In this document: piece after piece, positions 9,233 to 39,284 of the stretch
Layout of the letters: each line of letters starts with the position of its first letter
Numbering within the stretch: position 1 is the stretch's first letter
Assembly (NCBI GenBank): GCA_016699975.1
Contig: CP064994.1
Location: 848,311-912,310 of the forward strand
Length of the DNA: 64,000 nucleotides
Reading direction: 5' to 3'
DNA from: Candidatus Moraniibacteriota bacterium
GTDB taxonomy: Bacteria > Patescibacteriota > Minisyncoccia > Moranbacterales > UBA1568
The notes under the pieces: generated by a model
What the model saw: the letters and a program-made list of their open reading frames with translations, nothing else
Told to the model about the DNA's origin: nothing
The model's database searches: none
Made by a program: the position numbers and the translations under genes

Positions 9233-9853
9233 TTATTTCCGTGAGGGACGACTCTTTTTCGGAGCCTGAAAATTTTCCCAGTTTCTTTCATGAAACCGAC
9301 CTGTTTCACTATAGTCTTGCGAAACTGGTGCCGAGAGCGGCGAAAAGACAAGCTGAGCGATTTCCATTCCGGGACGCAGTATGATCGGCATTCGATTTAT
9401 ATTTGAGAGCTCCAGCGTAATGTTCAAAAAATGGCCGGGATTAATAAGTCCCGCCGTATTATGCACCACAAGACCAACGCGAGCGAGGCTCGATTTGCCA
9501 GAAATTTGAATGAGATACTTCTTACTTCCTACAAAATCACGAATTCTTCCCAGGACTGTTTCACCTGGATACAGCAAGAAGGGTTCCCCATCCTTCACAC
9601 GATGCTCTTTCGTCTTCGGAAACACCTTCTTTTCCGGATCAATGACCAAGGTCGTGTAGGCGTCAGTCACAATGAAATTATTATCAAGAATCACATCATA
9701 ACTTGCGGGTTGGAGTCGATTCTTGTCGAAACCGCGAAGAACAATATCTTTTTTCTTTACCGCCAAAAGAATATCCTGATCAGAGAGATACATAGTCGTT
9801 TCATTCAAGGACAAAAATTCTGTCTGTTCCGTAATATTCTGGCCAGTGTTCAT
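9233..9853 (-). CDS. dcd: dCTP deaminase (dUTPase-fold)
   Basis: LQPASYDVIL signature, a trimeric dUTPase-fold profile, and clustering with thyA and folA. Confidence 0.8.
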   Translation of the reverse strand: MNTGQNITEQTEFLSLNETTMYLSDQDILLAVKKKDIVLRGFDKNRLQPASYDVILDNNFIVTDAYTTLVIDPEKKVFPKTKEHRVKDGEPFLLYPGETVLGRIRDFVGSKKYLIQISGKSSLARVGLVVHNTAGLINPGHFLNITLELSNINRMPIILRPGMEIAQLVFSPLSAPVSQDYSETGRFHERNWENFQAPKKSRPSRK

Positions 9854-10479
9854 TATAAAAAAGCAAACATGCGCTCTAATCTTTCTTGAGGCAACTCCTC
9901 GACTCCCAAGTCACTCATAAACTCAAGAAGTTTCGCTCTCGTTGCTTCAATCTCTGTTTCATTTTGGATAACTTTTTCAAATTCAGCCACATAGCCGTAT
10001 CCTGCATTTCGATCTATACAAATCGTAACGTCACCCGCATCATATTCTTCACGTTCACGGGACCATTTTGCCTGGAAGGAAAAACCCGAAGAAACAAGAA
10101 GTGAATCGAGCTCATCGAGAGAGAGATTCCCTACTTCATCCTCAAATTCCATTCGTGATATTCCGTTAGAGCTCGAGGTTTCGTCCACGGAAGCCTTGAC
10201 CACAAAGAATACCCTTCCATTCACTTCCCGAGTGCGCACTGAGTGTTTCGATCCTTGTTTCACCACTTTTCGTAACTCCTCAAAAGAAGCGGATTTGAGA
10301 TATTTTTCGATACGCGGAAGAAGAATGTTCCAATCGCCCACCAGAAAATAATGATTGAGCTGTGCCCCAGTTTGAATGAGGCGCGCCGGTACTGGAAGAG
10401 AAAACAGCTTGTTGCGGAGTTGGTCTGCTTTTTCTTTTTCTCCAAGAAGACTCTTTATTTCTATCTCAAAATTTCCCAT
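9853..10479 (-). CDS. CYTH-domain protein (CyaB/ThTPase triphosphate tunnel metalloenzyme family)
   Basis: N-terminal EIEIK motif, internal EFEDEV and AEFE glutamate motifs, and a length of ~200 aa. Confidence 0.6.
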   Translation of the reverse strand: MGNFEIEIKSLLGEKEKADQLRNKLFSLPVPARLIQTGAQLNHYFLVGDWNILLPRIEKYLKSASFEELRKVVKQGSKHSVRTREVNGRVFFVVKASVDETSSSNGISRMEFEDEVGNLSLDELDSLLVSSGFSFQAKWSREREEYDAGDVTICIDRNAGYGYVAEFEKVIQNETEIEATRAKLLEFMSDLGVEELPQERLERMFAFL

Positions 10480-11283: not shown

Positions 11284-12255
11284 CTATTCCGAACGATTTT
11301 TTGCGCCGAGACGCTCAAAAGCGCGAAGCACTTCAAGCGGTACAGCAAAAACCACAGTATTCGATTGATCGGAAGAGATATCGTTAATCGAATGAAGGGT
11401 GCGAAGGTGGAGGGAGCCGTCGTGCTGCGCAAGAATACCCGCCGCACGAGAAATATTTTCCGCTGCGATCACTTCCCCTTCGGCCTTAATAATGACGGCA
11501 CGGCGTTCACGTTCCGCTTCCGCTTGTTTCCCGATGACGCGCTTCATTTCTTCCGGGAGCGTCACATCTTTGAGTTCCACGGAACTCACCTTGACGCCCC
11601 AGGCATCGGTCGCCTGATCCACAATGCCGCGGATCTTTTCGGCAATCGCGTCTCTATTCGAAAGGAGCTCATCGAGATCGACTTCGCCTACCACGTTTCG
11701 TATAGTAGTCTGCGCAAGTTGTGACACCGCATAGAAAAAGTTTTCTACCTCGATAATCGCTTTCTCAGCATGGGAAATCTTGTAGTAGATGACGGCATTC
11801 ACAGTCACAGAAATATTGTCCTTCGTAATCGCTTCCTGATCCGGCACATCGACGGCGCGGATACGCATATCGACCTTCTGGTAAGACTGAAACACGGGAA
11901 TCACGAGACGCCAGCCGGGCTCCATTGTTCCTGTGTATTTCCCAATTGTGAATTTTACGCCTCGCTCGTACTGATTGATCTGACGAATGGAAAGAACTAG
12001 GACAATGATGATTATGATAGGGAGCAAGAAAAAGATATCCATAGAAAAAATGTTACCAATAAAACGAAAGAACAGGGGCGCACCTACAAAATTGATAATG
12101 GAAAGAAAGAGGAGAATGACCGGGAACATCCGAACCCACGGGTTTTTCATGAATTCACGAAGTTTCTCTTCAAGAGTTTCTGTCTCAAATTCGGGTGGAG
12201 CAGAATACATCATAGAATTTCGATGAGACTTGTACGCTTCTTTGCTCTCCATCAT
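11284..12255 (-). CDS. SPFH/band-7 (stomatin/prohibitin-like) membrane protein
   Basis: N-terminal TM segment followed by an SPFH core (ERGVKFTIGKYTG...VDMRIRAVDVPDQEAITKDNISVTVNAVIYYKI) and a coiled-coil tail. Confidence 0.75.
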   Translation of the reverse strand: MMESKEAYKSHRNSMMYSAPPEFETETLEEKLREFMKNPWVRMFPVILLFLSIINFVGAPLFFRFIGNIFSMDIFFLLPIIIIIVLVLSIRQINQYERGVKFTIGKYTGTMEPGWRLVIPVFQSYQKVDMRIRAVDVPDQEAITKDNISVTVNAVIYYKISHAEKAIIEVENFFYAVSQLAQTTIRNVVGEVDLDELLSNRDAIAEKIRGIVDQATDAWGVKVSSVELKDVTLPEEMKRVIGKQAEAERERRAVIIKAEGEVIAAENISRAAGILAQHDGSLHLRTLHSINDISSDQSNTVVFAVPLEVLRAFERLGAKNRSE

Positions 12256-12285: not shown

Positions 12286-12318
12286 AAAAAAGCGCTCCTC
12301 AAAGGGAGCGCTTTTCGA
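12286..12318 (-). terminator. Rho-independent terminator (hairpin GCGCTCC...GGAGCGC followed by a T-run on the minus strand) downstream of cysteine-rich gene copy 1
   Basis: A perfect 7-bp GC-rich stem is followed by TTTTTTTA when read on the minus strand. Confidence 0.5.
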
Positions 12319-12398
12319 GAACTAACATAGGGAACCTCTCGTCCCTCCCCACCACTCCCCTCTTCCAGAGACGATTCTCACGAGGCAGGGCTCACTTA

Positions 12399-13905
12399 CT
12401 ACGGAGCAACCTCGGTCCAGTTATCAGCACACTCTTTGGTCCCTCCAAAGCAGGCATTCGCACGTCCGCAGGTATCGGTCCACTTTTCATTGGGGCAGTG
12501 ATTTTCTACTCCGGTACATGTACAGACTTCACACCGAGAGCCGTTCCACTCACCGACGCCGCAATGAAATTCGCATTTTCGAGGAGTATTCGTTTCTGAG
12601 TACTGCCAGGACAAGGGTCCTGACAAACCAGTATTGTCTCCTTCGAAGGAAACGGCGGACGGTGGGACGGATCCGCTACACTTTGGTGTTTCTGCGATTA
12701 TCTGAACAGAGCTCATGATGAAACCCGCGCCATTCGACTGGGCACATCGAATTCCATAGGTATATGTCCCGGGAGCAAGGTTCCCGTGGGGACTCCCGCT
12801 CTGTTCTGAGCTAAGCCGCCGCTTGTCCAAGACGCGTATCCCATGCCATCTATGGCATAGCAACCCGAAACGTTTGTAGAAGTCCACACAAGATTGGCTG
12901 ACGAATAAGCAGGTATCGTAATGGAGTATCCTCTTGTCGGTCTCCCTTGGGGACTCTCTGCAAGAAAGGCGACGCTTCCATTTTGTACCGGTGGTGGTGG
13001 AGGAGTTCCGCGCACACAAGAGTTTCCACTAAAAGTAAAGCCGGCACGACAGGCGATGCAATAACTTCCGCTCCCCCACTACAATCCCAGTCCCATCCCG
13101 ACCATTCTCCTCCAGTAAACAATGCGAAAGGATTTCCTCCCGGCTCTGTCCCAGCATGACCGCTCGCCGTTCCACTGGAACACAGTGTAAACCCATCTAC
13201 TTCCGGACCTCGCTGCGTTGGCATCACTTGACCGTGAGCCGTGCCACAGGCTCCATTTGTCGGTCCTCCTCCACAATTTTTGGCACCTTCCACATTATTG
13301 CATCCGTTCCAACACTGTTGTCCGATACAAGTATTGCTCGCGCAATTATTACTTGGCGTGCAGCCGCCTGGTGGAGGTGTACCCGGACCAGACGGTGGAT
13401 CTTCCACGCTGCGCTCCATGCATCGATAAACATTTTTTCGCCACTCATTTTGTCCTTTTCGCTCACAATTACAGGTAACCGTCAATCCTTCAGAACAAAC
13501 GCTTCCCGGGGCCGGGCAATTCTGCCGATAGTTCGGGTCATACGGTGTTCCCGGGCCACACTCGCGATTACCCTGCCTCACCCATTCTCCACACTCCGCG
13601 CAGGGCTCGCAATGTGCAACGCCTCGGAACCTTCCATCCTGCTGGCATGCACCACATTGTCGCTCGCGACCAGAATTCTTACAATACGTTCCCGTGCTTG
13701 GGCAGGTGAGGAGAGGGTTGGCACTCGCTGAGCACGAGCCTCCGGGAGCAGACACTCGCCATTTTCCGGTTGCGGCTTGCGCTGATTCTGGAGAGAGCAA
13801 TGCAAAACCCACTCCAAAAACAAGTGCGAGAGCCCCAAGGAAAATATTTTGCTTCCATGCTTTCCGAGAAATGAAGGATATATTCATACGATTCGAGATC
13901 GACAC
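12399..13905 (-). CDS. Cysteine-rich secreted protein of ~560 aa, copy 1. It has a signal peptide, many CxxC-like pairs, and Pro-rich linkers, and is broken into 3 frames.
   Basis: ORFs 12850..13905, 12713..13015 and 12399..13019 tile a single protein when compared with copy 2. The N-terminal signal peptide is MSISNRMNISFISRKAWKQNIFLGALALVFGVGFALLSPESAQA. About 60 Cys residues are present. Confidence 0.5.
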
Positions 13906-14005
13906 TTAAAATTCAAAAAGAAAAATGAGGAATTTCGATACTGAGAAAAAGTAAAGATCCAAACCCCTTACTGCGACACAGTTTCCTTCTTTTCACCAGA
14001 GGGGA

Positions 14006-14458
14006 TCACTGCATCGCCGTAGACATATTCTTTTGAAGAAGCATTCTCGAAGTGAAGGATCGTGACAAACACTCCACTACGAAGCTCGTCGAATCCTTCT
14101 GTGGATTCCTGTACGTAAAAAGAGACTCAACTGAAGAGGATGCCTTCTCAGCATTACTCTCGGGAGCCGAGACGAGTTTCACCCAGACTCCATCGGCATC
14201 GTCTTTGGTTATCATTTCTCGAACGAAGCCGGAAGTTGATTGCATGTTTTTCTCTACCTCCTTCGAAAGATTCTCCGGGATACTTTTCTCGCTCTTTGGT
14301 CCAGGAGCGTTCGAGATCATATCTTTTCCTTCGGGATTGTTCTCGCCCACAAACGAACGGAGCGCCAAAAAAACCATCGCCACCATGACGATAATGAGGA
14401 GGAAGAGCGCCCAAAAAAGAAGCGGGCTGCTTGAACGGGAAGGGAGAGGTTGCGACAT
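14006..14458 (-). CDS. Small membrane-anchored protein (N-terminal TM helix, acidic/Ser-rich ectodomain), copy 1, upstream of the cysteine-rich gene
   Basis: 150-aa ORF with TM segment LLFWALFLLIIVMVAMVFLAL. Co-directional with, and immediately upstream of, the cysteine-rich gene. Duplicated at 18807..19299. Confidence 0.4.
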   Translation of the reverse strand: MSQPLPSRSSSPLLFWALFLLIIVMVAMVFLALRSFVGENNPEGKDMISNAPGPKSEKSIPENLSKEVEKNMQSTSGFVREMITKDDADGVWVKLVSAPESNAEKASSSVESLFTYRNPQKDSTSFVVECLSRSFTSRMLLQKNMSTAMQ

Positions 14459-14709
14459 AGCGTTTTTGTTTTAGAGCTGAGGAGCACAAAAAAAGACTTT
14501 TGGTCTCAGTATACCATACACGCTTTAAAACGAGCGCGCTCTTGTCAAGACTTCCCTCTCCCGAGCGAGGAGGGTAGAATCGAAATACGGCTCGTCTTTC
14601 TCTAAAAAAGAAAAATGTGGCTGAATATGAAGATTCCCATCTCTTTCGAGTTCCGTTTTTTCGTTTTTGACTCTCTGTAAGACTTCATGCAATTCCGATT
14701 GATCCTCCT

Positions 14710-14875
14710 ATGCCCTTCGCTCACCTTCACGTTCACTCGCACTACAGTCTTCTGACCGCTCCCGCGAAAATTGATGCACTTCTTGATCGCGCGAAGGCAC
14801 TCGGTATGGAGGCGCTCGCGCTCACAGATTACAGCGCGCTCTATGGTGCGGTCGAGCTTTCGGTTAAAGCGAAAG
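14710..14875 (+). pseudogene. Duplicated 5' fragment of dnaE (first ~55 codons, PHP-domain N-terminus) with no continuation
   Basis: [56 protein letters not shown] is identical to the dnaE start at 19553. Homology ends at 14875, inside the 3' end of rplA. Confidence 0.7.
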
Positions 14876-15553
14876 CCGAAATCCGGGACCCATGGTTGTC
14901 GCGAGAGTCGCCGAGACGATAAGTCTGCCCTTCATACTTTCGGGCTTCAGGCGCTGCACAGTGTCTATGAAGGAGTGAATATTCTCCGTTAATTCCTTCT
15001 CAGGCATCGATATTTTGCCCACTGACTGGTGAATATTTCCGGAATCATCAGTTTTGAAGCTTGCTTTACTTCCTTTCTTGAGCGCAAGAACAGTGTCTTT
15101 CACTTTGGAGGTCACGGTTTCGTTCTTCGGGTTCGGCATCATACCTTTGGGACCCAAAATTTTCGCCACCGTCGCAAGCTTCGGCATTATGTCTGGTGTT
15201 GCAAGAAGAATATCAAAATGAACCCCCGGAGAACACTTCCCTTCTTTTATTTCTGCAATCAACTCTTCTCCGCCAACTAAATCGGCACCCGCCTCTTTCG
15301 CCTCGGATGACTTTGATCCCGTAACAACCGCGATACGCTTTGCTCTTCCGAGACTATTCGGAAAGATAGTCGTGCCGCGGACAAGTTGATCCGTCTTCTT
15401 GGGATCAATCCCTAAGTGAAAATGTATCTCAACGGTCTCATCGAACTGAGCTGCTCGGTTCTCTTTGAGAATTGAGACGGCCTCTTTGATATCGTAAAGC
15501 TTTCCTGCTTCTCGTTTTTCAGCAATCGCTCGATAATTTTTTCCGTACTTCAT
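14864..15553 (-). CDS. rplA: 50S ribosomal protein L1
   Basis: MKYGKNYRAIAEK...GKLYDIKEAVSILK...TMGPG. Conserved secE-nusG-rplK-rplA order. Confidence 0.85.
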   Translation of the reverse strand: MKYGKNYRAIAEKREAGKLYDIKEAVSILKENRAAQFDETVEIHFHLGIDPKKTDQLVRGTTIFPNSLGRAKRIAVVTGSKSSEAKEAGADLVGGEELIAEIKEGKCSPGVHFDILLATPDIMPKLATVAKILGPKGMMPNPKNETVTSKVKDTVLALKKGSKASFKTDDSGNIHQSVGKISMPEKELTENIHSFIDTVQRLKPESMKGRLIVSATLATTMGPGFRLSL

Positions 15554-15651
15554 AGCGTTGTCGTGGTACCAACGTCCGGTTTCCTGAAAAAAGAAACCAA
15601 GACTCCCACAAAGTAAAAAAAGAAAATACTTTGGACACAACCCCTCAGAAT

Positions 15652-16074
15652 CTACCCTTCAACTTTAATACCCATGGAGCGAGCGGTACCCGCGACAATA
15701 TTCATAGCCGCATCGACGTCGTTGGCATTCAAGTCCACCATTTTCATTTCCGCAATTTCACGAAGCTGTGCAGAACTGAGTGATCCTACCTTGTCTTTGA
15801 GGGGATTCGCAGCCCCCTTCGCAGCTTTTGCAGCCTTTTTGAGGAGTTCCGCAGCGGGTGGCGTCTTTAATACAAAGGTGAAAGTACGATCTTCAAACAC
15901 AGTGATTTCGGCCGGAATGATATCGCCCATTTTCTCCTTGGTCGCCTCATTGAACTTTACGCAGAAGTCCTGAATATTGAGACCGTGTTGCCCCAGTGCG
16001 GGACCAACAGGCGGTGCCGGATTGGCTTTTCCTCCAGGAATTTGCAACTTGATAACGGTTTTAATCTTTGCCAT
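15652..16074 (-). CDS. rplK: 50S ribosomal protein L11
   Basis: [46 protein letters not shown] is canonical L11. Confidence 0.9.
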
Positions 16075-16147
16075 AAGTGTCTCTAGAGATTACTGAATGG
16101 AAAGCTCGCCACTCTTTCGGCGCCTCCTCCCATTCTTGCGGACATAT

Positions 16148-16693
16148 CTATACCTTCTTAATCTGCAAAAAGTCGAGTTCGACGGGCGTCTCGCGACCAA
16201 AAAGCGAAACCAAAACTTTTACCTTTCCTTTCGCTTCGTCAAGTTCGTCTACACGGCCATCGAAATTCTTGAATGGGCCGTCAACGATTTTGACTGGATC
16301 TCCTTTTCGAACATCGATTTTGAACTTCGGCTCTTCGACTCCCATGCGCTTTTTGAGCATCTCTATCTCTTTAGGGTCAACTGGAGTTGGTGTGGTACCA
16401 AGACCAATAAATCCCGTCACATTGGGCGTATTACGAACCACATACCAGGACGCGTCGGTGACGATCATATCAACCAAAATATATCCGGGATAAATGCGCT
16501 CTTCCACCATCACGCGCTTCCCGTTTTTCATGTTGATTTTTTTCTCTTTGGGAACCATGACGTCGAAGATGAAGTCCTGCATTCCCATCGATTCGATACG
16601 CTGTGTGAGATTTCGAGAAACATTGTCTTCATAGCCAGAGTAGGTGTGAAGCACATACCATGATCGGCCATGATGTTGCGTTTGCTTTGCCAT
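16148..16693 (-). CDS. nusG: Transcription termination/antitermination factor NusG
   Basis: NGN domain (WYVLHTYSGYEDNV...) plus a C-terminal KOW domain (GDPVKIVDGPFKNFDGRVDELD). Start is the ATG at 16693, inside the longer ORF given in the track. Confidence 0.85.
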   Translation of the reverse strand: MAKQTQHHGRSWYVLHTYSGYEDNVSRNLTQRIESMGMQDFIFDVMVPKEKKINMKNGKRVMVEERIYPGYILVDMIVTDASWYVVRNTPNVTGFIGLGTTPTPVDPKEIEMLKKRMGVEEPKFKIDVRKGDPVKIVDGPFKNFDGRVDELDEAKGKVKVLVSLFGRETPVELDFLQIKKV

Positions 16694-16821
16694 AAAAAAA
16701 GAGAAACGGATGTCGAAAAAAAATCTTGTGATCAGAAAGAATCGCGAGCCTGAGAAAAACGGAAGGTTGTTTTCCACTCTCAATCGCTCTTTCCCAAAAC
16801 AAGCGCTGGCAATTTTTGTCA

Positions 16822-17010
16822 CTATTCCCCAAGAATAATCTTCTTGAAAAGCATGCCGAAAAACGAATCGAGCGTTCCCAAGAGAACAGCAACCGCCGCC
16901 GAAACACTGAGTACAATGAGTGTATATCGCACCACCTGTTCTCGCGAGGGCCACGTGATTTTGAGCGCCTCCCCTTTTGCAAGGAGGAGAAATGAAAAGA
17001 GGGATTTCAT
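16822..17010 (-). CDS. secE: Preprotein translocase subunit SecE
   Basis: 62-aa protein with MKSLFSFLLLAKGEALKITWPSREQVVRYTLIVLSVSAAVAVLLG (KVxWP motif plus a single TM). Located upstream of nusG. Confidence 0.7.
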   Translation of the reverse strand: MKSLFSFLLLAKGEALKITWPSREQVVRYTLIVLSVSAAVAVLLGTLDSFFGMLFKKIILGE

Positions 17011-17144
17011 AAATTTCGGCTTTTTTAAAGAGCCCTTGGGGCTCTTTCTGCTTCCACCATACGCGAAACGACACAAGCTGTCAACCTGACATTTCTCACA
17101 AAATAATTTGATTCCTCTCCATTTTCAAATCACAGAGAAAAAGC

Positions 17145-17185
17145 CGAGCCTCCCCAAAAGAAGAAACTCGGCTTCTGATAGTCCT
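17145..17185 (-). terminator. Rho-independent terminator downstream of cysteine-rich gene copy 2 (GCCGAG...CTCGGC stem, T-run on the minus strand)
   Basis: Hairpin AGCCGAGCC-loop-CTCGGCT followed by TTTTTCTC on the minus-strand transcript. Confidence 0.45.
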
Positions 17186-17237
17186 CCCCACCACTCCCCT
17201 CTTCCAGAGACGATTCTCACGAGGCAGGGCTCACTTA

Positions 17238-18743
17238 CTACGGAGCAACCTCGGTCCAGTTATCAGCACACTCTTTGGTCCCTCCAAAGCAGGCATTCGC
17301 ACGTCCGCAGGTATCGGTCCACTTTTCATTGGGGCAGTGATTTTCTCCGGTACATGTACAGACTTCACACCGAGAGCCGTTCCACTCACCGACGCCGCAA
17401 TGAAATTCGCATTTTCGAGGAGTATTCGTTTCTGAGTACTGCCAGGACAAGGGGCCCTGACAAACCAGTATTGTCTCCTTCGAAGGAAACGGCGGACGGT
17501 GGGACGGATCCGCTACACTTTGGTGTTTCTGCGATTATCTGAACAGAGCTCATGATGAAACCCGCGCCATTCGACTGGGCACATCGAATTCCATAGGTAT
17601 ATGTCCCGGGAGCAAGGTTCCCCGTGGGGACTCCCGCTCTGTTCTGAGCTAAGCCGCCGCTTGTCCAAGACGCGTATCCCATGCCATCTATGGCATAGCA
17701 ACCCGAAACGTTTGTAGAAGTCCACACAAGATTGGCTGACGAATAAGCAGGTATCGTAATGGAGTATCCTCTTGTCGGTCTCCCTTGGGGACTCTCTGCA
17801 AGAAAGGCGACGCTTCCATTTTGTACCGGTGGTGGTGGAGGAGTTCCGCGCACACAAGAGTTTCCACTAAAAGTAAAGCCGGCACGACAGGCGATGCAAT
17901 AACTTCCGCTCCCCCCACTACAATCCCAGTCCCATCCCGACCATTCTCCTCCAGTAAACAATGCGAAAGGATTTCCTCCCGGCTCTGTCCCAGCATGACC
18001 GCTCGCCGTTCCACTGGAACACAGTGTAAACCCATCTACTTCCGGACCTCGCTGCGTTGGCATCACTTGACCGTGAGCCGTGCCACAGGCTCCATTTGTC
18101 GGTCCTCCTCCACAATTTTTGGCACCTTCCACATTATTGCATCCGTTCCAACACTGTTGTCCGATACAAGTATTGCTCGCGCAATTATTACTTGGCGTGC
18201 AGCCGCCTGGTGGAGGTGTACCCGGACCAGACGGTGGATCTTCCACGCTGCGCTCCATGCATCGATAAACATTTTTCGCCACTCATTTTGTCCTTTTCGC
18301 TCACAATTACAGGTAACCGTCAATCCTTCAGAACAAACGCTTCCCGGGGCCGGGCAATTCTGCCGATAGTTCGGGTCATACGGTGTTCCCGGGCCACACT
18401 CGCGATTACCCTGCCTCACCCATTCTCCACACTCCGCGCAGGGCTCGCAATGTGCAACGCCTCGGAACCTTCCATCCTGCTGGCATGCACCACATTGTCG
18501 CTCGCGACCAGAATTCTTACAATACGTTCCCGTGCTTGGGCAGGTGAGGAGAGGGTTGGCACTCGCTGAGCACGAGCCTCCGGGAGCAGACACTCGCCAT
18601 TTTCCGGTTGCGGCTTGCGCTGATTCTGGAGAGAGCAATGCAAAACCCACTCCAAAAACAAGTGCGAGAGCCCCAAGGAAAATATTTTGCTTCCATGCTT
18701 TCCGAGAAATGAAAGATATATTCATACGATTCGAGATCGACAC
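17238..18743 (-). CDS. Cysteine-rich secreted protein of ~560 aa, copy 2 (broken into 3 frames at positions different from copy 1)
   Basis: ORFs 18063..18743, 17386..18282 and 17238..17450. Frame breaks lie at a T5/T6 run (~18275) and at GGGGCCC versus GGGTCC (~17455). Confidence 0.5.
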
Positions 18744-18806
18744 TTAAAATTCAAAAAAGAAAAATGAGGAATTTCGATACTGAGAAAAAGTAAAGATCCA
18801 AACCCC

Positions 18807-19299
18807 TTACTGCGACACAGTTTCCTTCTTTTCACCAGAGGGGATCACTGCATCGCCGTAGACATATTCTTTTGAAGAAGCATTCTCGAAGTGAAGGATC
18901 GTGACAAACACTCCACTACGAAGCTCGTCGAATCCTTCTGTGGATTCCTGTACGTAAAAAAGAGACTCAACTGAAGAGGATGCCTTCTCAGCATTACTCT
19001 CGGGAGCCGAGACGAGTTTCACCCAGACTCCATCGGCATCGTCTTTGGTTATCATTTCTCGAACGAAGCCGGAAGTTGATTGCATGTTTTTCTCTACCTC
19101 CTTCGAAAGATTCTCCGGGATACTTTTCTCGCTCTTTGGTCCAGGAGCGTTCGAGATCATATCTTTTCCTTCGGGATTGTTCTCGCCCACAAAACGAACG
19201 GAGCGCCAAAAAAACCATCGCCACCATGACGATAATGAGGAGGAAGAGCGCCCAAAAAAGAAGCGGGCTGCTTGAACGGGAAGGGAGAGGTTGCGACAT
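18807..19299 (-). CDS. Small membrane-anchored protein, copy 2 (frame differs from copy 1 because of A5/A6 and A3/A4 run differences)
   Basis: ORFs 18994..19299 and 18807..19364 together correspond to 14006..14458. Confidence 0.4.
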
Positions 19300-19552
19300 A
19301 GCGTTTTTGTTTTAGAGCTGAGGAGCACAAAAAAAGAGACTTTTGGTCTCAGTATACCATACACGCTTTAAAACGAGCGCGCTCTTGTCAAGACTTCCCT
19401 CTCCCGAGCGAGGAGGGTAGAATCGAAATACGGCTCGTCTTTCTCTAAAAAAGAAAAATGTGGCTGAATATGAAGATTCCCATCTCTTTCGAGTTCCGTT
19501 TTTTCGTTTTTGACTCTCTGTAAGACTTCATGCAATTCCGATTGATCCTCCT

Positions 19553-22500
19553 ATGCCCTTCGCTCACCTTCACGTTCACTCGCACTACAGTCTTCTGACC
19601 GCTCCCGCGAAAATTGATGCACTTCTTGATCGCGCGAAGGCACTCGGTATGGAGGCGCTCGCGCTCACAGATTACAGCGCGCTCTATGGTGCGGTCGAGC
19701 TTTCGGTTAAAGCGAAAGAGCGCGGCATGAAAGCAATTATCGGTGCCGAAATATATGTCGCGAAAGACATGAGGAGTCGCACTTCGAACGAAGACCGTCG
19801 GCGCTACAACCTCGTACTCTTGGCCGAAAATGAAGTCGGCTATAAGAATCTCATGAAGATTATTTCCGCCTCGCATCTCGAAGGCTTCTACTACAAACCC
19901 CGCGCCGACAAAGCGCTCTTGCGAACGTATCGCGAAGGACTCATTGCCCTTTCAGGATCCGTAACGGGCGAAGTGCCTTCGCTCATCATTGCAGGAAGTG
20001 ACGAGCGCGCGACGAAAGCGGCCCGGGAATACGAATCAATTTTCGGAGCAGGAAACTTTTTCTTGGAACTTCAGCCGCACCGCGACTACGAAAACCAGCT
20101 CCTCGCGAACGCGGGACTCGTGCGAATATCACAGGAAACCGGCATTCCGCTCGTTGCTGCAAACGATGTCCATTATGTGCACCCTGAAGAAGCCGAGCTT
20201 CAGGATATTCTGCTGTGTATTCAAAACAACTGGAAAGTTTCGGACGAAAATCGTCTCTCCCTTCGGCACCTCGACCTCTCCCTTCGAAGTCCAGAAGAGA
20301 TGCGCGCGTTTTTTGAAGACGTGCCGGACGCGTTCGAGAATGCAGCTCGTATTGCCGATCGCTGCGACGTGCATATCAAACTCGGGGAAACACAACTTCC
20401 CCACTTCGATGTGCCTGAGGGAAAAACCGCAGAAGTATATCTGCGCGAACTCTGTGAACAAGGCCTCGTGAAGCGCTTTGGCGACCGCGCGGGAGAGACG
20501 CACCGAGCGCGCATGGAATACGAATTGGGCGTCATCGAAAAAACTGGTTTCGCTTCGTACTTCTTGATCGTGCAGGACTTCGTAAACTGGGCGAAAAATA
20601 AAGGCATCGTGGTCGGCCCGGGTCGCGGAAGCGCCGCCGGCAGCTTCGTTGCGTACCTCACGGGCATTACGAACATGGATCCAATCGAGTATCGCTTGCT
20701 CTTCGAGCGATTTCTTAATCCGGAACGCATCTCAATGCCCGATGTCGATATGGATTTTTCCGACGACCGTCGCGACGACGTACTCAACTACGTTCGAGAA
20801 AAATACGGTCACGACCATGTCGCCCAAATCATCACTTTCGGAACCATGGCAGCGCGCGCCGCGATTCGCGATGCGGGTCGAGCGCTCGGATTTTCCTATG
20901 GTCTCTGCGACTCGGTCGCGAAACTCATTCCGCAGTTCCACACAATAGAGAAGGCACTCGCCGAAGCGCCGGACTTCAAGGCATTCACCGAGAAAAATCC
21001 CGATGCAAAACGCCTCGTCGATGTCGCCAAAAAGATCGAAGGGCTCGCGCGACACGCATCAATGCATGCCTGCGGCGTCGTTATCACCAAAGATCCCGTC
21101 ACCGAATACACACCCATCCAGAATATTTCTGGTTCCAAAGAAGGTATCGTGACACAGTACTCGTCGTCTACCAAGTCGAGTTACATCGAAAAAATCGGCC
21201 TCCTCAAAATGGATTTTCTCGGACTCAAAAACCTCACGATTATCCAAGACACCATCAAGATTCTCAAAGCGCTCGGAAAATTCGATGAGCTCGGACAGAA
21301 AATCGGACTCGATCCCAATTCTGCAACGACCGCCGAAATTATCGATCACCTCCCCCTCGACGACGCCGATACCTTTGCGCTCCTTCAGAAAGCAAGAACG
21401 ACCGGTGTCTTCCAGCTCGAATCAAACGGCATGAAGCGATACCTCAAACAACTTCGCCCGAGCGCGCTCGAAGATATCATCGCCATGGTCGCCCTCTACC
21501 GACCTGGTCCCATGGAATATATTCCCGACTTCATCGCCGGAAAACACGGTCAAAAAACAGTCGAGTATCTCCACCCGAAACTCGAACCCATTTTGGGAAC
21601 GACCTACGGCGTCGCAATCTACCAAGAACAAGTGATGCAGATCGTTCGCGACCTCGCGGGCTTTACCTTGGGCGAGGCGGATATTCTGCGAAAAGCGGTG
21701 GGAAAGAAAATTTTCGAACTCATTCGGGAGCAAAAAATAAAATTCGTAGAGGGCTGTGAGAAACAAGGCATTTCCAAATCAATCGGTGAAAAAGTATTCG
21801 CGTTCATCGAGCCGTTCGCGGGATACGGATTCAATCGCTCGCACGCCGCCTGCTATGCCCTGATCGGCTATCAAACCGCTTACCTCAAAGCCCACTACCC
21901 TGCCGAATTTATGGCAGCCCTTCTCACGAGTGATCAAAGCAATTCCGATCGTGTCTCGATCGAGGTCGCCGAAGCGCGTGACATCGGCATCGAAGTTTTG
22001 CCACCTTCCGTCAACGAAAGTTTCGAAGCGTTCGCCGTGATTCGCGGAGAAGATGGGATCGAGCGCATTCGCTTCGGTCTCAATGCCGTCAAAAATGTAG
22101 GAACGACCGTCGCCGAAGAAATCGTCCGCGAACGAAAAGCCAACGGTCCATTTCAAAACCTCACCGACTTTATCGAACGCGTTCGCGGAAAAGACCTAAA
22201 CAAAAAATCGATCGAAGCGCTCTCCAAGGTGGGCGCGCTCGACTCGTTCGGCGAACGAAAGAGTCTTCTTTCGAGTATCGATACCATTCTCCTCTACGCC
22301 AAAAACAGCGAAAAGGCCAAATCGACCCATTCCGTCAGTCTTTTTCGAGACATGCCGATCGAAACGAGCGAGATTCGGATTGCTCCGGTCCCGGAAGCTA
22401 CCAAGCGCGAGAAACTTCAGTGGGAAAAGGAATTGCTCGGCCTCTATGTGAGCGATCATCCAGCAAGCGACTATGAAGCATACCTCGCCCACGTGGCACT

Positions 22501-23089
22501 CCCTATTCATGAAGTCGAAAAACACCCCGAAGGCGCCTCGACTCAGGTAGGCGGTGTCATCTCCGCGCTTCGCAAGGCCTACACCAAAGATCAAAAAACG
22601 ATGTACTTTGCTACGATCGAAGACACTACTGGCCGCATCGAAGCGGTCGTCTTTCCGCGCGTCGCCGAACAAACGGAGTCGCTCTGGGTCGAAGAAGCCA
22701 TGGTAATCGCCGGCGGAAAAATTTCCCTGCGCGACGGCTCGCCCAAAATCATGGTGGAGCGCGCCGAACGCCTCTCTCCAGCATCAGTCGAGACCTGGAA
22801 ACGAGTTGCTCTCACCCGAAAAAAACATGAGGGAATTTCCAAAGCAGTACCTCCTCAAACAGAAGACTCGAAACCATCCGCTTCTTCGATTACGGTCAGC
22901 CTTCCCGACACAGCAACCGAAACAGATATCGAAATGCTCGCAACTTTACTTCGTTCGCTCTCTCCGGGAGACACACGCGTTTTCATTGAGCTTCGCAGCC
23001 ACGTCATTCGAACAGCATTCACGATTGCCTCCGATAGAGAAACGCTCGATCGTCTCCGCGCCTCAAGCCCAATGAGAGAAATACGATAA
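19553..23089 (+). CDS. dnaE: DNA polymerase III alpha subunit DnaE
   Basis: 1178 aa with a PHP domain ([11 protein letters not shown]), a polymerase core ([15 protein letters not shown]...), an HhH region and an OB domain. Confidence 0.9.
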
Positions 23090-23096: not shown

Positions 23097-24083
23097 TTGA
23101 TGGAAAAAAATGCTCTCCCCATTTCCACGGAGAAAACCAAGCTCCTCGCGATAGCAGGGCCGACCGCGTCCGGAAAATCGTCGCTTGCGATACGTATCGC
23201 CCGAGAAGAACACGGCGAAATCATCTCAGTCGACAGTCGACAAGTCTACCGCGGCATGGACATTGGTACCGGCAAAGTAGAGCAAGACGAGTCACCACAC
23301 GACGTCTTTTTTCCGAGGGCATTCGCCACCATCTTATCGATATCGTGAATCCCGAAGAGGAGTACAACATCTCGCATTTTTTGAAAGATGCGACAGAAAT
23401 CACGATGGAAATCGAGAAGAGAGGAGTGCTACCCCTCCTCTGTGGCGGAACCGGTTTCTGGATGGAGACGTTTCTCGACGAGGCGCCCATTTCTTCGGTT
23501 CCACCCGATCCTACCCTTCGAGCCGAACTTTCGAAAACACCGGCCGAAGATCTGTTCACGCTTCTCACCACTCTCGATCCAAATCGGGCAAAACAAATAG
23601 ATCGGCACAATCCGCATCGCCTCATTCGAGCAATCGAAATCGCTCGTGCCAAAACGGCTGGGCCCCACACGGCCGAACCCCCAACAAACGCGGCGAACAT
23701 ATCACACACCTTCGACATCTGCATCATCGCACTTTGCCCGCCCAAAGAAAATCTCGACGAAAAAAATAAGGGCACGTCTCGACGAACGCTTGTCGTGCGG
23801 CATGGTCGAGGAAGTGCAGACGCTCCACGAACACGGCATTTCCTGGGAACGATTCGAGTCGTTCGGACTCGAGTATCGTCGCATTGCAGAATTTCTCGAA
23901 GGGAAGCACTCTTTCGAAGAAATGAAAATGCGTCTCACCTTCGACATTCTTCATTATGCGAAGCGTCAACGGACGTGGCTACAAAGATGGCACCGCCGAC
24001 ATCCCATTCTCCACTTCGTCGAAACGACAGAAGCGGCAATCGAAGAAGTGCACCTCTTTCTTCATGGCGCCCCCAAAAAGTAA
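23097..24083 (+). CDS. miaA: tRNA dimethylallyltransferase MiaA, interrupted by two 1-nt homopolymer indels
   Basis: P-loop [14 protein letters not shown], ...HHLIDIV..., LCGGTGFW and a C-terminal helical region lie in three consecutive frames. The breaks fall in the T6 run at ~23305 and the A7 run at ~23762. Confidence 0.75.
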
Positions 24084-24105
24084 AAAGCCCGGAACCGCTG
24101 TTCCG
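24020..24105 (+). repeat. 86-bp direct repeat, copy A (miaA 3' end plus stop plus hairpin). Copy B lies at 26997..27082.
   Basis: 83 of 86 positions are identical to 26997..27082. Confidence 0.85.
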
Positions 24106-24406
24106 TATAATGGTCTGACAAATTCGACACCCCCATTTGTTGTTGTCGTATGAAAAAATCTACACCCCCAGCAGAAAGCATGGATGGCGCTTTCCGCCCT
24201 CCGAGGAGAACCGCTCTCCACACTTGGCAGTCTCCACCAGATTCATCCGAACCAAATTGGCAAATGGAGAAGGATATTGGAAGAATCCGCAGAACAACTC
24301 TTCTCCGATAAAAGGAAAAAAGAAAACCACGAAAAGTTCGCACAACTCGCATCCCAACACTCGCACCCCGATGTATCGGGGAGCGGGCGGGCGGGTTTCC
24401 ACCTAA

Positions 24407-26380
24407 CTATTGTCCGGCGCCTTGAATTTGCCAGTAAAAGTTTGTGCAGCTTGTGTCCCTGCAACCACAGCGCCAAGAGCCGCCCTGCACACTGCAGGTC
24501 ATCCCGACAAGATAGGTGGGAGACGCAGCACTTGCGGTTGAAACATTCGGATCGGTGATCGTCGCGGAGACGGGTCCTTGGCACCACTCGCCATTCAACA
24601 CTCCGGTACACGTACCGGTATATTGTCGCCATCCCGCCGTGACGGCATCGTACCAATAGCCTTTGGTGTAGACGATTCTCGTGGTGTCTCCCGTTATGCC
24701 GGTCGTGAGATTCACCGTGTCGGTGTCGGCGCTATTGCACCGGACATTCATCAGGTTCGTGCTCGTTTGAAACGCGTCGAATGGAGCGCCGTAAGAGTTG
24801 TAGGTGGCTTGGGAGAAGTTGGTGGTGGTGACGGTGTTGCAGGAAGTAGTCGTTGCGGATTCCCCGTTCAAGTATCGTTCAAGATTGGAGTAGCCACTCG
24901 TATGAATTGTCGGTCCATCGGAGGCATTGTTCGGGTTCAGACCTTTGACTGTCTCCCACTGATCGGGCATACCGTCGTGGTCGGTGTCGGTGCAGGCAGT
25001 GCCGGGGTCGATAACGGGAAAGCCGCCGACGCTATCTTCATTGACATAATAATTGCCCTGTAAGTTATGGTATTCACTAATAACTCTTCTATCTACCGTA
25101 TCGCGGTTTTCTACCCAGTTACCCATACAGTCGAGCCTATGTGAAGCGCCTACCGTAGGCAATACCTTGTTGTCGAGCTCGGCAGCGGATTGGGCTGTAA
25201 TCGGATATGGAAGCGTGGGAAGTGGTGTGGCGCGGCGATATTGGGCGGGAAGTACCCCTATCAGTTTGGCGGGTGTTTCCCACTCGTCAACTATGCCTTC
25301 ACTGGTCACTTCCCAGATCATTCCCCAGTCGTCGTTGGCGGGAGTCGGGTTGTGATAGCCGATATTGCCAGATGAGAATATGGACGGCGGACCAAGAGGC
25401 GTATCGGGCCCCGGTGTCGGACATACGTAAATTTCGTAGGGGATACGTCCCTGCCTCAGCGGACCAGCCTTATAGTAATTTCCAATAACGTCCAGATTAA
25501 CGCCGCCGATGAGTGCGGTGGCTGAAAATTTCCAATTGTAGATAATGTTATTTACCAGCCGGAAACTCTTGTTTTTTATCAACGGATTGCGATGGGTAGT
25601 GTTGGCCATGAAACTATGATGAATATCAATATTAGTCATATTTTCGGAAGCATTGTTGCCGGAACCCGTTAAAAATCCCTTCGAAAAATTGCTTTCATTG
25701 ACCAACATCAGCGGTTCGTACATCATTAACCATGAATAGGTAAGATTGTTTTGTGGCGCTCCCCACGAGCTCGCGTTTTCATCCGTTCCCCACGACAGAG
25801 ATACATGATCGTAAATCGAACTGGATGCAGCGGTACTTGAAGCAATATTGTCTCCTTCCGAATAACCCGTATAGCCATGGCGTATACGGATATACCGGAG
25901 TATAACATCGTGGGTATAGTTGGTGATGCAATTTCCTTGAACAAAATTTTTCCCCGAGATGGTAATGCCGCCGCCGGGAGCGGTTTGTCCAGCAATCGTG
26001 AGATACGGATTCCTAATTTCCAAACCTTTTTGACCACCCGATATATTGCAATTGATAATACCCGCCACCCTAAATACAATTGTTCGCGGTCCGGTCATCT
26101 CTACCCCTGCCCGCAGACTCCCCGGTCCCGAGTCATTGAGGTTGGTCACCTCATAAACAATGCCTCCGCGCCCGCCGACCGATTCCGCTCCGCCACCCTC
26201 GGCTCCGGGAAACGCGGGGATCGCCTGCGCATTCGCTGATGCAGAAGGAAGGAGGCTTGTTATGCAAAGGATAGACCACAAAAGAACGGGAGGAACGACA
26301 CTACCACCTGTTTGTCTGCATTCGTTCATACCGATGCCCGAAGGCGCTCTTCGCGCAGTGTTCTCCGAAGCTAAACGCAT
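24407..26380 (-). CDS. Secreted right-handed beta-helix protein, pectate lyase (PL1)-like, with a DxDxDG calcium-type motif and a C-terminal Cys-containing domain
   Basis: NIDIHHSF...HRNPLIKNKSFRLVNNIIYN matches the PL1 vWIDH/RxPxxR/NN.Y block. The DTDHDGMPDQWE motif and a signal-peptide-like N-terminus are present. Confidence 0.6.
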   Translation of the reverse strand: MRLASENTARRAPSGIGMNECRQTGGSVVPPVLLWSILCITSLLPSASANAQAIPAFPGAEGGGAESVGGRGGIVYEVTNLNDSGPGSLRAGVEMTGPRTIVFRVAGIINCNISGGQKGLEIRNPYLTIAGQTAPGGGITISGKNFVQGNCITNYTHDVILRYIRIRHGYTGYSEGDNIASSTAASSSIYDHVSLSWGTDENASSWGAPQNNLTYSWLMMYEPLMLVNESNFSKGFLTGSGNNASENMTNIDIHHSFMANTTHRNPLIKNKSFRLVNNIIYNWKFSATALIGGVNLDVIGNYYKAGPLRQGRIPYEIYVCPTPGPDTPLGPPSIFSSGNIGYHNPTPANDDWGMIWEVTSEGIVDEWETPAKLIGVLPAQYRRATPLPTLPYPITAQSAAELDNKVLPTVGASHRLDCMGNWVENRDTVDRRVISEYHNLQGNYYVNEDSVGGFPVIDPGTACTDTDHDGMPDQWETVKGLNPNNASDGPTIHTSGYSNLERYLNGESATTTSCNTVTTTNFSQATYNSYGAPFDAFQTSTNLMNVRCNSADTDTVNLTTGITGDTTRIVYTKGYWYDAVTAGWRQYTGTCTGVLNGEWCQGPVSATITDPNVSTASAASPTYLVGMTCSVQGGSWRCGCRDTSCTNFYWQIQGAGQ

Positions 26381-26990: not shown

Positions 26991-26996
26991 AGTTTC

Positions 26997-27082
26997 CACG
27001 AAACGATAGAAGCGGCAATCGAAGAAGCACACCTCTTTCTTCATGGCGCCCCCAAAAAGTAAAAAGCCCGGAACCGCTGTTC
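26997..27082 (+). repeat. 86-bp direct repeat, copy B (with a complete 9-bp stem hairpin GCCCGGAAC/GTTCCGGGC)
   Basis: Matches 24020..24105. Confidence 0.85.
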
Positions 27083-27117
27083 CGGGCAGAAAATACAATA
27101 TTCAAAATGCAAATTAC

Positions 27118-31118: not shown

Positions 31119-31169
31119 CTTTGTAACCGACCAATGTTGCAGGTAAGCGTGTCGTGCTACCTGCTGTTG

Positions 31170-31360
31170 GCGGTGAGATTTTGCGCTTTGCGCGAACTTT
31201 TTTCGAGCAAAGCACCAAATAAGGAAGCCGTCCCCGCCGTTGCGCTCCGCCCACTGGCGGATCGCTGTATCCAGAGAGAAGTTTCTTTACGATTTCGGAT
31301 TTTGCGCGCGGTTTTTTTCTCTCAAAAATGGAAAAGAAATCTTCTCTCTGGATACTCTGC
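31170..31360. repeat. Inverted repeat IR-A (left copy, ~190 bp). Its inverted partner lies at 38945..39133.
   Basis: The reverse complement of 31170..31360 matches 38945..39133 with only a few indels. The unit contains internal hairpins (GTATCCAGAGAGAAG...CTTCTCTCTGGATAC; CCGCCAGTGGGCGG). Confidence 0.85.
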
Positions 31361-31669
31361 TTTGGCAAGCAGAACGGCGGGAACGGCTGCTGTTGGTACG
31401 CCGCAGAGATAGAAATAAATGAGCTTGTGGTTATATTCTATCACATCAGGAAATATTTTGTTCACTCATTTCTCCATCTTTGCGGCGGAGCCATATCTAC
31501 AGTTTTCGGTAGTTCATTTGTTTGTGACTCCGGTTAAGCTGGTGCCAACCCATAATATGGATTGTGCTAGAGCACAATCAAATTTAATTGTGCTTGCCCC
31601 ACCCACCCGTGCGCGCACATCTGCTCGCAAAGGATAAAAGGGTTGCGAGCAAGACTCCCTTTTCATTCC

Positions 31670-33059
31670 CTATACTGAAGCCTTACTATGCTTGCTAATC
31701 TTTATTTGGGGAGTAATACCTAATTCCGAGCATTTTCTTGCCCAGGATTCAATTTTTTGTTTCAAGATTATAGAATTTATTTCAGAGATTTTAGTTGGCA
31801 ATTTTTTGTTTTCTATGCCAATCCAAAGACAGTAAACCCGGAAAGACTGATCCAGCTTTTTAGTATTCGCTTTCTTACTTATAAGTTCAAGTGTATTATT
31901 TGCCTGGTCACAAACATATCCTAGCTTTTGTGCAGTGCCAAATTTTACAGCATACACGGTATCCTCCTTCTTTACATCCCATGCCTCAATAGGCGTGCCC
32001 GATTTAACCTTAATTTTTGAAAAATCTTTATCCGCGATACTGTACCCGTGTTTCTTCAACTCTATATTAAAATCACTTTCTATTCCCATAATTTCAATCA
32101 AATCATCCTCTACTTTCTCTAGTTCTATGGTATCAATATACTCATTGAGTTGATCCAAATAATCTTCGTTAAATCTCATCCATTTACCTTGTGACAAAAT
32201 AACATTTTGACCATCAACGATATAATCAATTGATTCCTTGAGCGTCCGCGAGAACTCATTTGCATCTTCTTTTTTTACTTTAATCTTAATACTAAGTATT
32301 TGATCATCAGGAATCGAATGTTCTGATATAAATCCATTAAGCTGCTCAATCGAAAGCTCATCTAGCTCATTTGAAAAATTTCCTCCCCAATGAAATACAT
32401 ACTTTTCTTGTCCAGAAAATATGAAATCTACACCGACAAGGTCGTGGCTATTTGCGGTAAAGTCTGCACCGTCTTTGATTCCTTTTATTTCTTTGAGAAG
32501 CTTTTCTTCATAAGAAATGACTTCGGGAAGTCCATCTATAATCATCGTTCTGGGGAGCGCGAAAAGTTCTTTTGATTCAGCTAATCTAGTCAATTTATCA
32601 AGAAAATCCTCAAGGTCCTCTTTCTCAATTTCTGGATTAAGATTTACGGATGATCCGAATTTACCAGTTTTGCCGAAGTCAGCTTTTTGCTCTTCCAATA
32701 TAGATGCTTGCAAATAGTCAACGGATTCCCCACTTTCTATATCAAGCTTTGTATGTTTTGTATAGCTTCTTATTTCTTTTTTCTTCTTGCCAGCAAACTT
32801 TTTTGTAGATTTTTGACGAACATCCTGTTTATCAACAGCACGTTTTGCAATTTCTGTTCCAAAATCATGATCGCAGTGTTGCCGAAGATAAAAATGACTC
32901 TTCCCGTAACTAATAACGAAGCAATATTTGTCATTTTCCCAAAGATAAGCTGCAAAATAAATTAAATTCTTTGGCTTATTACCAGAAAAAAATTCCTCAT
33001 ATTCTTCCACCCACGGGATTTGTTTTGAGTTAATATCTTTTGAAAAATAGAAGCTATAT
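31670..33059 (-). CDS. Unknown protein, C-terminal ~462 codons of a ~505-aa gene interrupted by an IS630 element. It is the last gene of the R-M operon.
   Basis: ORF 31670..33073. Its first 5 codons are encoded by the IS terminal inverted repeat. The upstream exon is at 34140..34265. The protein is K/E-rich with no recognised domain. Confidence 0.45.
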
Positions 33060-34138
33060 CCCCCGCAAAACAAAATAGGGGATCTGGTATATTGGATTCA
33101 TGCCCGCAAAAACAAAAACTGAACTCTCCCCCGAAGAGAAAGATTTGCTCAAAGCGTATCTCAAAACATCCCCGCTCATTCTCGTTCGCCTGAAATGCCA
33201 TGCGATTCTTACGAGAGAAAAAGGAATGCCTCTGAAAGACATCGCCGATATTGTTTCGAGACACGAAAATACTATCGGTGTATGGATGAAGAACTGGGAA
33301 AAACAACGCATGGCGAGTATCTTCACCGGACATGAGGGAATCAGAACGCAAGTAAACTCACAGAAGAACAAAAGAAGAAATCAGAGAAGCCCTCGAAAAC
33401 CACCAAGTGAATACACTCTTCCAAAAACCTTTTGGGATGTCCCCGCCCTCAAAACATATGTTCAAGCGATATTTGGAGTCGTATTTGAATCCGTTCGTTC
33501 ATATCACTTCCTCCTTTCTTTTTGCAATCTGAGTTTCAAGTATCCCGATACCTTCGATCTTCACCGGAATGAAACTCATATTGTCGAAAGAATGGTTGAA
33601 ATACAGACAGAAATCAGCCCCTTCTCAAGGATGATTCGTGGGAAGTGTTTGCTTCCGATGAAGTGCGAATGGAATTGGAAGCTCTCACCAGAAAAGCGTG
33701 GCTCAAGAAAGGAGAACGGACGATCGTGCACGTGAATCGAAAGCGAGAAGCGCAAGTTATCTCGATTGCTCAATCAAAAAACTTTCGATGCCATCTTTAT
33801 GAAGTTCCCTGGCAAAACCAAGAAGAAATACTCAAAGCGTTGGAACAATTTCTGAAAGAGTATCCTGATAAAAATCTGTATCGTATGGGACAATGCGCGA
33901 TTTCCAGGGAAGGGGAATACGAAAAGCCCTCCGTAAAGGAGGACTTCTCGAGAGAGTGCATCTCATCAACTTGCCGCCATGCCCCCGATCATAATCCGAT
34001 TGAGCAGTGTGGAATACGGCGAAAGGGATGATGGCAAACACCCAATATGAAAGTTTTGAAAAAATGAAGATGGTGTTTTTCACGTATGTGAATGGACGAG
34101 CGTTTGAGTATCGAATCTAAGATTTTGTTTTGCGGGGG
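33060..34138 (+). mobile_element. IS630/Tc1-mariner family insertion sequence (~1.08 kb) with 17-bp terminal inverted repeats CCCCCGCAAAACAAAAT and TA-type flanks
   Basis: The left TIR is at 33060..33076. Its reverse complement is at 34122..34138. Flanks are ...TATAT| and |ATATAG. Confidence 0.75.
33100..34031 (+). pseudogene. IS630-family transposase (HTH plus DDE domain), frame break near 33650
   Basis: N-terminal HTH (LKCHAILTREKGMPLKDIADIV) and a C-terminal ...APDHNPIEQ motif (the YSPDLNPIE box) occupy two overlapping frames (ORFs 33100..33735 and 33645..34031). Confidence 0.65.
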
Positions 34139-34139
34139 A

Positions 34140-36848: not shown

Positions 36849-36850
36849 AA

Positions 36851-38659: not shown

Positions 38660-38661
38660 AT

Positions 38662-38910: not shown

Positions 38911-38944
38911 TAATGTGATATATTACAATACACAAAGGAAAAAA

Positions 38945-39255: not shown

Positions 39256-39284
39256 TTGTCCTTGTTTCGTATCCAAAAGCAATT

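Follow-up and report, generated by a model that had tools for sequence, protein, structure and literature searches.

Two copies of one block of DNA, each carrying genes that appear broken, raise the question of how much of such a locus is biology and how much is assembly. The locus considered here lies in a 64,000-nt stretch (the window) of contig CP064994.1, from the genome of a Candidatus Moraniibacteriota bacterium, a lineage placed within the Parcubacteria/Patescibacteria group. An earlier note on this DNA described a 2.54-kb block (12341-14875 and 17181-19727) duplicated around the secE-nusG-rplK-rplA cluster and offered two readings: a real and recent duplication whose pseudogenisation is sequencing noise, or one biological copy assembled twice, with both junctions of the first copy as artefacts. 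Through comparison with independent assemblies of the same species, we find that the block, which we call R, is very probably present twice in the genome, that the true sequences of its two copies are identical, and that the differences and frameshifts seen between them are residual long-read consensus errors.

R is a direct repeat: its two copies, of 2532 nt (copy 1) and 2536 nt (copy 2), have the same orientation and are ~99.5% identical when gaps are counted, with 10 difference events (Table 1); its length and similarity are far beyond chance, and its ends lie within a few bases of those first reported. The copies bracket secE-nusG-rplK-rplA, all four genes of which are contiguous and co-oriented. 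We refer to the left unique flank as U0 (SPFH, CofE-like, CYTH, dCTP deaminase, thyA, and folA genes), to the sequence between the copies as U1 (14876-17182), and to the right flank, which holds the remaining part of dnaE followed by miaA, as U2. The junctions are J1 (SPFH side/R), J2 (R/rplA), J3 (secE upstream region/R), and J4 (R/rest of dnaE). Read in minus-strand order, R contains the first 166 nt of dnaE in antisense (55 codons plus 1 nt), ~250 nt of intergenic sequence, a gene for a 163-aa protein, a gene for a 496-aa protein, and ~55 nt of 3' flank. This open reading frame (ORF) content bears out what had been ascribed to the block, namely, a cysteine-rich (Cys-rich) gene, a small membrane-protein gene, a promoter region, and the start of dnaE. 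Likewise, copy 2 does lead into a full-length dnaE, and the last codons and stop of rplA (LSL and stop) do lie in copy 1.

That both copies exist is indicated by short-read contigs of the same species, assembled from other samples and found via exact-product look-ups. All four junctions between R and its flanks occur in such contigs, from at least seven other samples. Two of them, L001 (ERZ28614324, 4901 bp) and L002 (ERZ15185987, 4358 bp), run from the left end of R through secE-nusG-rplK-rplA and into R again, crossing the boundary between rplA and the truncated dnaE (dnaE'). J2 is thus seen in three assemblies (these two and L024 [ERZ3455828], which has J2 only), and J3 is seen in the same two and in L004, which has J3 only and ends 79 nt inside R; the Logan contig L003 enters R at both ends of the cluster, by 29 nt at J2 and 30 nt at J3. 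J1 is present in L007 and L008, and L006 and L009 enter R by 30 nt from the SPFH side; J4 is present in L007, which continues 2.1 kb into dnaE. The Logan contigs L003, L006, and L009 end k-1 bases (29 to 30 nt) into R, as at a graph branch at k = 31, and L001 is a 4846-bp cycle (R plus U1) whose ends overlap by 55 nt; stops and a cycle of this kind are what a repeat leaves in a de Bruijn graph. With R flanking U1 at either end and also adjoining both U0 and U2, at least two copies of R are required.

Both of the copy-1 junctions that had been suspected as artefacts (placed at 12341 and 14875) are therefore found in other samples, which leaves the second of the original readings unsupported. 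The first is upheld by the four junctions and by differences that are private to one copy, with genes intact in independent contigs, as described below. Its claim of recency is doubtful, given that the duplication is found in every sampled strain and that the copies seem to be kept identical. In none of the contigs of the samples found is rplA joined straight to the SPFH flank, and the duplication thus appears to be fixed in the sampled populations. Within one sample, L002 (47% repeat) had a SPAdes k-mer coverage of 0.91 and L011 (unique) one of 0.65; the ratio, 1.4 versus an expected 1.47, is a weak hint of doubled depth over R. An exact 30-mer over the rplA/dnaE' junction had no match in Joint Genome Institute (JGI) metagenome contigs, and exact-product look-ups with the SPFH protein, DnaE, and a 345-aa fragment of the Cys-rich protein returned nothing, by a method that misses products with differing start calls or strain single-nucleotide polymorphisms (SNPs).

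The differences between the copies, in copy-1 coordinates, are a CTA insertion/deletion (indel) at 12506-8, GGGT versus GGGGC at 12614-18, C3/C4 at 12782, C5/C6 at 13072, T6/T5 at 13433, a G/A substitution at 13876, A5/A6 at both 13914 and 14116, A3/A4 at 14350, and a 2-bp AG indel at 14493. Seven of the 10 are changes of one base in mononucleotide runs of 3 to 6 nt (GGGT/GGGGC being a run-length change plus an adjacent substitution), and the CTA indel, the AG indel, and the G/A substitution make up the remainder. The earlier note had described them as almost exclusively single-base changes in runs plus one SNP and one 3-bp indel, which stands except that the AG indel had not been listed. In each copy, the Cys-rich gene has two frame breaks and the membrane-protein gene one, at sites that differ between the copies, as had been observed; the Cys-rich gene of copy 2 further carries the 3-bp deletion (at 17344) and the substitution (G to A, at 18714). 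Mixing three copy-1 variants with two copy-2 variants gives an open frame of 502 codons; a full-length protein can thus indeed be reconstructed by combining the copies, with a true product of 496 aa and not the ~560 aa first proposed.

When both window copies were placed in a six-way alignment with L001, L002, L007, and L008, the four contigs were unanimous at all 10 sites and at each matched exactly one window copy. Five deletions are private to copy 1, and five changes are private to copy 2. In L001, L007, and L008, the genes for the 163-aa and 496-aa proteins are both intact. Strains do vary within R, at seven SNPs and one indel, and at these sites both window copies always carry the same allele. 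The four contigs are thus not from the same strain as the window, since they differ from it at seven real SNP sites. Unique sequence, compared with the same contigs, has 1 indel in 12,487 nt (none in the 2.3 kb of U1 or in 2.1 kb of dnaE, with the one indel falling in 8.1 kb of U0) versus 9 to 10 in the 5,068 nt of the R copies (Fisher p = 3e-5), so that the indel density of R is ~25 times that of the 12.5 kb of unique flank. As judged from these alignments, the apparent pseudogenes in both copies are artefacts. The 345-aa N-terminal fragment of the copy-1 Cys-rich protein is identical to NCBI IPL87_04435, annotated as a hypothetical protein, and RplA is identical to the L1 protein of an NCBI Moraniibacteriota metagenome-assembled genome (MAG); both records lie on a contig of 1,048,819 bp. 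L001 and L008 have a T in the stop codon of the Cys-rich gene (12399/17238) that is missing from L007 and from both copies in the window; its absence changes TAA to TAG and leaves the protein the same, and the variation is a true strain polymorphism common to both copies.

Long-read consensus errors would account for all 10 differences and all of the frameshifts, in a setting where short-read polishing could not clear them. Wick and Holt (2022; PMC8812927) reported that short-read polishers that use one alignment per read, Racon included, fail in repeats: reads are drawn to whichever instance is error-free at a site, and the erroneous instance goes uncovered. In the window, polishing would have left errors behind in the same way. 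Only copy-private errors survive such a process, and therefore the full-length gene can be rebuilt from the two copies. Many circular Patescibacteria MAGs from activated sludge were produced by Nanopore assembly followed by Racon, Medaka, and a final round of Racon with Illumina reads (PMC8012365). This workflow fits, and we infer that the Moraniibacteriota MAG originated in that study.

How did copy 1 come to lie beside rplA? Copy 2 is presumably parental, because it continues into intact dnaE, and copy 1 would be the inserted copy, because in the complete genome CP064975 (RplA identity, 61%) the genes after rplA are those of U0 (CYTH-DCD-HD-thyA-NUDIX-folA), an order that matches U1-U0 here. 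In two closer relatives (RplA identity, 69 to 72%), secE-nusG-rplK-rplA is followed by scpA-scpB. An RplA scan of genome contigs returned distant genomes only, the best being a Magasanikbacteria MAG (49%) in which rplA stands alone beside parB, and was uninformative on synteny. The earlier note had expected an rplA-rplJ-rplL continuation, disrupted by copy 1, and had proposed a check of rplA-rplJ synteny in related genomes; rplJ directly follows rplA in no relative compared, and the window contains neither rplJ nor rplL. The duplication did not, therefore, break such a continuation. Nor is the tail of rplA, supplied by the repeat and at first held to be suspicious, a sign of a mis-join: it is reproduced exactly in three other samples and is thus real. 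The close RplA orthologues are all 229 aa long, as is RplA here, which ends GPGFR-LSL; relatives end FRLVI, IRVRV, and similar.

The alternative flanks at the junctions share 0 to 1 nt of identity, and copy 1 may have been inserted by illegitimate recombination at such junctions or, at the rplA end, across a possible 12-nt microhomology. The insertion would have separated rplA from the terminator before the SPFH gene, with the last three codons of rplA replaced or supplied by R; the strong hairpin just past J1 (12316-12287) is plausibly the original rplKA terminator. Other origins of R were considered and rejected. A mobile element is not indicated: there is no recombinase gene, no inverted repeat, and no target duplication (no inverted repeats were found at 9-24 kb of the window, the junction flanks are unrelated, and neither R gene has a Pfam domain). 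Simple tandem duplication of R plus the cluster would give two copies of the latter.

Neither R gene has a Pfam match, even at E <= 1. The Cys-rich protein has a signal-peptide-like N terminus and Cys-rich modules, and the 163-aa protein has a single N-terminal hydrophobic (transmembrane) segment. A word-indexed search with the Cys-rich protein retrieved same-species fragments only; an exhaustive HMMER search of 1.84 billion representatives retrieved 88 remote relatives, most of which share a repeated module of ~55 to 60 aa. The 496-aa protein is thus best described as a putative lineage-specific, modular, secreted Cys-rich protein. Rfam finds three tRNAs in the region and no leader or riboswitch. 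The genome would hold two functional copies of both the membrane-protein and the Cys-rich genes. The first strong terminator downstream of rplA comes after copy 1, so that transcription of the ribosomal operon probably also reads through into this copy. A promoter-like site for secE (17084-17056) lies downstream of the hairpin just past J3 (17137-17155). The duplicated dnaE promoter region points antisense into rplA and could express a 70-aa DnaE' fusion peptide; three other assemblies annotate the corresponding ORF as a PHP gene of 70 aa.

That the copies match at all strain-variable sites (seven SNP sites and one indel, with the window read as long-read consensus) suggests gene conversion between them since the strains diverged. 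A bolder version of the two-copy reading is that the duplication has been selected for and homogenised by gene conversion, doubling the dosage of the Cys-rich protein and its membrane partner, with one copy under secE-nusG-rplK-rplA read-through, a dnaE promoter directed antisense into rplA, and a cluster that can be amplified or excised as a 4.85-kb unit (compare the cycle in L001). We regard this combination as unlikely.

Some observations weigh against two true copies that differ by polishing errors only. The order U0-R-U1-R-U2 on a single molecule is given by one assembly, that of the window itself. L007 runs contiguously from U0 through R to U2, skipping the ribosomal cluster, and a single-copy chromosome would give the same contig. 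Presumably, L007 is a collapsed-repeat path in a low-coverage MEGAHIT graph from which the U1 branches are missing; we read it so because the U1 contig from that sample, L004, breaks off after 79 nt of R. Pure insertion at the junctions seen would predict an ancestral RplA of 240 aa and not the conserved 229 aa, so that a small deletion or microhomology has to be assumed. Possibly, a few bases were lost at the end of rplA, or its last 12 nt already matched the antisense of dnaE codons 52 to 55 as microhomology. Finally, two apparent frameshifts occur in miaA (23097-24118), which is unique sequence, and errors are thus not strictly limited to the repeats. The frame of miaA switches near 23291-23306 and 23757-23764 (relative to MiaA of CP064975), through further uncorrected errors or as a real pseudogene; contig L021 ends short of both sites. 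At 9857, in the CYTH gene (9853-10479), the window has A6 where L006 has A5, which leaves a CYTH protein of 208 aa in place of 225 aa; no other indel was seen in the 8.1-kb left flank.

Were R single in the genome and simply written twice, with false junctions at 12343/12344 and 14875/14876, the copies would be expected to differ by consensus-type errors only, as they do, and the direct U0-R-U2 path of L007 would follow. We consider this very unlikely, given that J2 (L001, L002, and L024) and J1 (L007 and L008, with L006 and L009 30 nt into R) recur in independent samples and that a cluster with R on both sides, as in L001 and L002, is impossible, in a circular or a linear chromosome, with a single R if U0-R and R-U2 exist. 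Just as improbable is a mixed population of two molecules, in which a U0-R-U2 chromosome (as L007 would be) and a separate 4.85-kb circle of R plus secE-nusG-rplK-rplA (as the closed L001 would be), arising by excision through recombination between the repeats or as an amplifiable unit, were merged by the assembler. L001 and L007 are equally expected from graph traversal of U0-R-U1-R-U2, and the circle would hold four essential single-copy genes and no replication functions. Moreover, relatives carry the cluster in the chromosome beside U0-type genes, and a long-read assembler would not place a separate circle between two spanned repeats.

Less probable again is that the duplication is real and so is the decay, with both copies gaining true frameshifts and becoming pseudogenes. 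The frame breaks do lie at different places in the two copies, and NCBI did annotate a truncated fragment; however, none of the 10 changes is found in the four independent same-species contigs, all 10 are private to one copy, seven are one-base changes of run length, and there are 0 real substitutions between the copies versus 5 errors in each. The least probable explanation, that the differences are slipped-strand on/off switches of surface-protein copies, can draw on the frequent phase variation of secreted Cys-rich proteins and on the location of the differences in mononucleotide runs, but these runs are just 3 to 6 nt long, well under the ~8 nt or more of tracts that usually slip, the membrane-protein gene and intergenic DNA are also hit, two of the indels (CTA and AG) are not in runs, and at none of the 10 sites do the four contigs of other samples vary or go out of frame.

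If two intact copies differ by polishing errors, as we propose, then four genes in a public MAG record are wrongly broken, and at least one fragment (IPL87_04435) is listed as a separate hypothetical protein. Repeat-aware polishing would give back two intact copies of each gene. More generally, the locus is a clean example of how copy-private homopolymer errors in repeats mimic complementary pseudogenisation; where regions are duplicated, pseudogene counts and inferences of gene decay drawn from Nanopore MAGs can come out too high, notably for reduced candidate phyla radiation (CPR) genomes. Duplications are uncommon in a 1-Mb genome, and a fixed one of 2.5 kb that covers an orphan surface/secreted gene pair is in itself mildly interesting and unsurprising.

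Table 1. Features of the duplicated block and its surroundings (window coordinates)
Feature	Position	Strand	Remarks
Repeat R, copy 1	12344..14875		Presumed derived; between rplA and its terminator; 5 private deletion errors
Repeat R, copy 2	17183..19718		Presumed parental; runs on into intact dnaE; 5 private errors
Cys-rich secreted protein gene, copy 1	12399..13887	-	Frame broken by C4 to C3 at 12782 and C6 to C5 at 13072
Cys-rich secreted protein gene, copy 2	17238..18725	-	Frame broken by GGGT to GGGGC (17451-17455) and T6 to T5 (18271)
163-aa single-pass membrane protein gene, copy 1	13968..14458	-	Frameshift, A6 to A5 at 14116
163-aa membrane protein gene, copy 2	18807..19299	-	Frameshift, A3 to A4 at 19191
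Divergent intergenic region between membrane-protein gene and dnaE'	14459..14709 (copy 1), 19300-19552 (copy 2)		Putative promoter function
dnaE' fragment ORF	14710..14922	+	55 DnaE codons up to 14875, then 15 that are antisense to rplA
rplA	14864..15553	-	229 aa; last three codons and stop at 14864-14875, within R copy 1
rplK	15652..16074	-	
nusG	16148..16693	-	181 aa
secE	16822..17010	-	62 aa
dnaE	19553..23089	+	Intact, 1178 aa; first 166 nt part of R copy 2
SPFH/Band-7 gene	11284..12255	-	First gene of U0
Strong intrinsic-terminator hairpin	12287..12316	-	27 nt past J1; now downstream of Cys-rich copy 1
Terminator-like hairpin	17137..17155	-	Just past J3; downstream of Cys-rich copy 2

Several other features of the window deserve mention. 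A 91-nt direct repeat (24015-24105 and 26994-27084, 95% identical), consisting of the miaA 3' end and its terminator, brackets a 2.9-kb segment with an orphan 657-aa ORF (24407-26380, minus strand; no Pfam match); the arrangement suggests an insertion in the course of which the 3' end of miaA was duplicated. There is a second direct duplication of ~1 kb (46802-47780 and 48267-49235, 87 to 100% identity, with a spacing of 1455 to 1469 nt) in low-GC DNA adjoining tRNA-Ser (49341-49431). A low-GC (35 to 41%) island at 31167-39136, flanked by 181-nt inverted repeats (93%), encodes DUF6119, an N4/N6 DNA methylase, an AlwI-type restriction endonuclease, and a RadC-Dam methylase fusion, and is probably an acquired restriction-modification island. 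Inverted repeats of 135 nt (39126-39260 and 40673-40807, 99% complementary) lie 1.4 kb apart, with the right arm abutting another tRNA-Ser (40800-40887), and the segment between them may be invertible or mobile. In the leucyl-tRNA synthetase ORF (61711-63915), a NUDIX domain (residues 81 to 197) separates the remnant of an editing domain from the parts for catalysis and anticodon binding; this architecture is unusual, and the N terminus of the protein lies outside the ORF.

Taken together, the locus is an ordinary, fixed segmental duplication plus a known polishing artefact. As in the canonical secE-nusG-rplK-rplA-rplJ-rplL-rpoB-rpoC cluster, secE-nusG-rplK-rplA are contiguous and co-oriented; unlike it, this lineage has no rplJ or rplL after rplA, duplication or not. 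The block resembles bacterial segmental (nontandem, direct) duplications that arise by illegitimate recombination or template switching in that two direct copies lie a few kilobases apart with no mobile-element genes, the junctions are blunt or microhomologous, and one of them truncates a gene (dnaE'). It differs from them in its setting, a 1.05-Mb streamlined CPR genome in which four essential genes are bracketed and the C terminus of RplA is rewritten, and in being fixed in all sampled populations with copies that stay identical, suggesting gene conversion. As for the errors, they resemble the problem addressed by Polypolish (Wick and Holt 2022, PMC8812927) in being mostly homopolymer indels, private to one copy while the other copy is correct, much denser in R than in the unique flanks, and productive of complementary false frameshifts; unlike that problem, apparent frameshifts here also occur in unique sequence (miaA and the CYTH gene).

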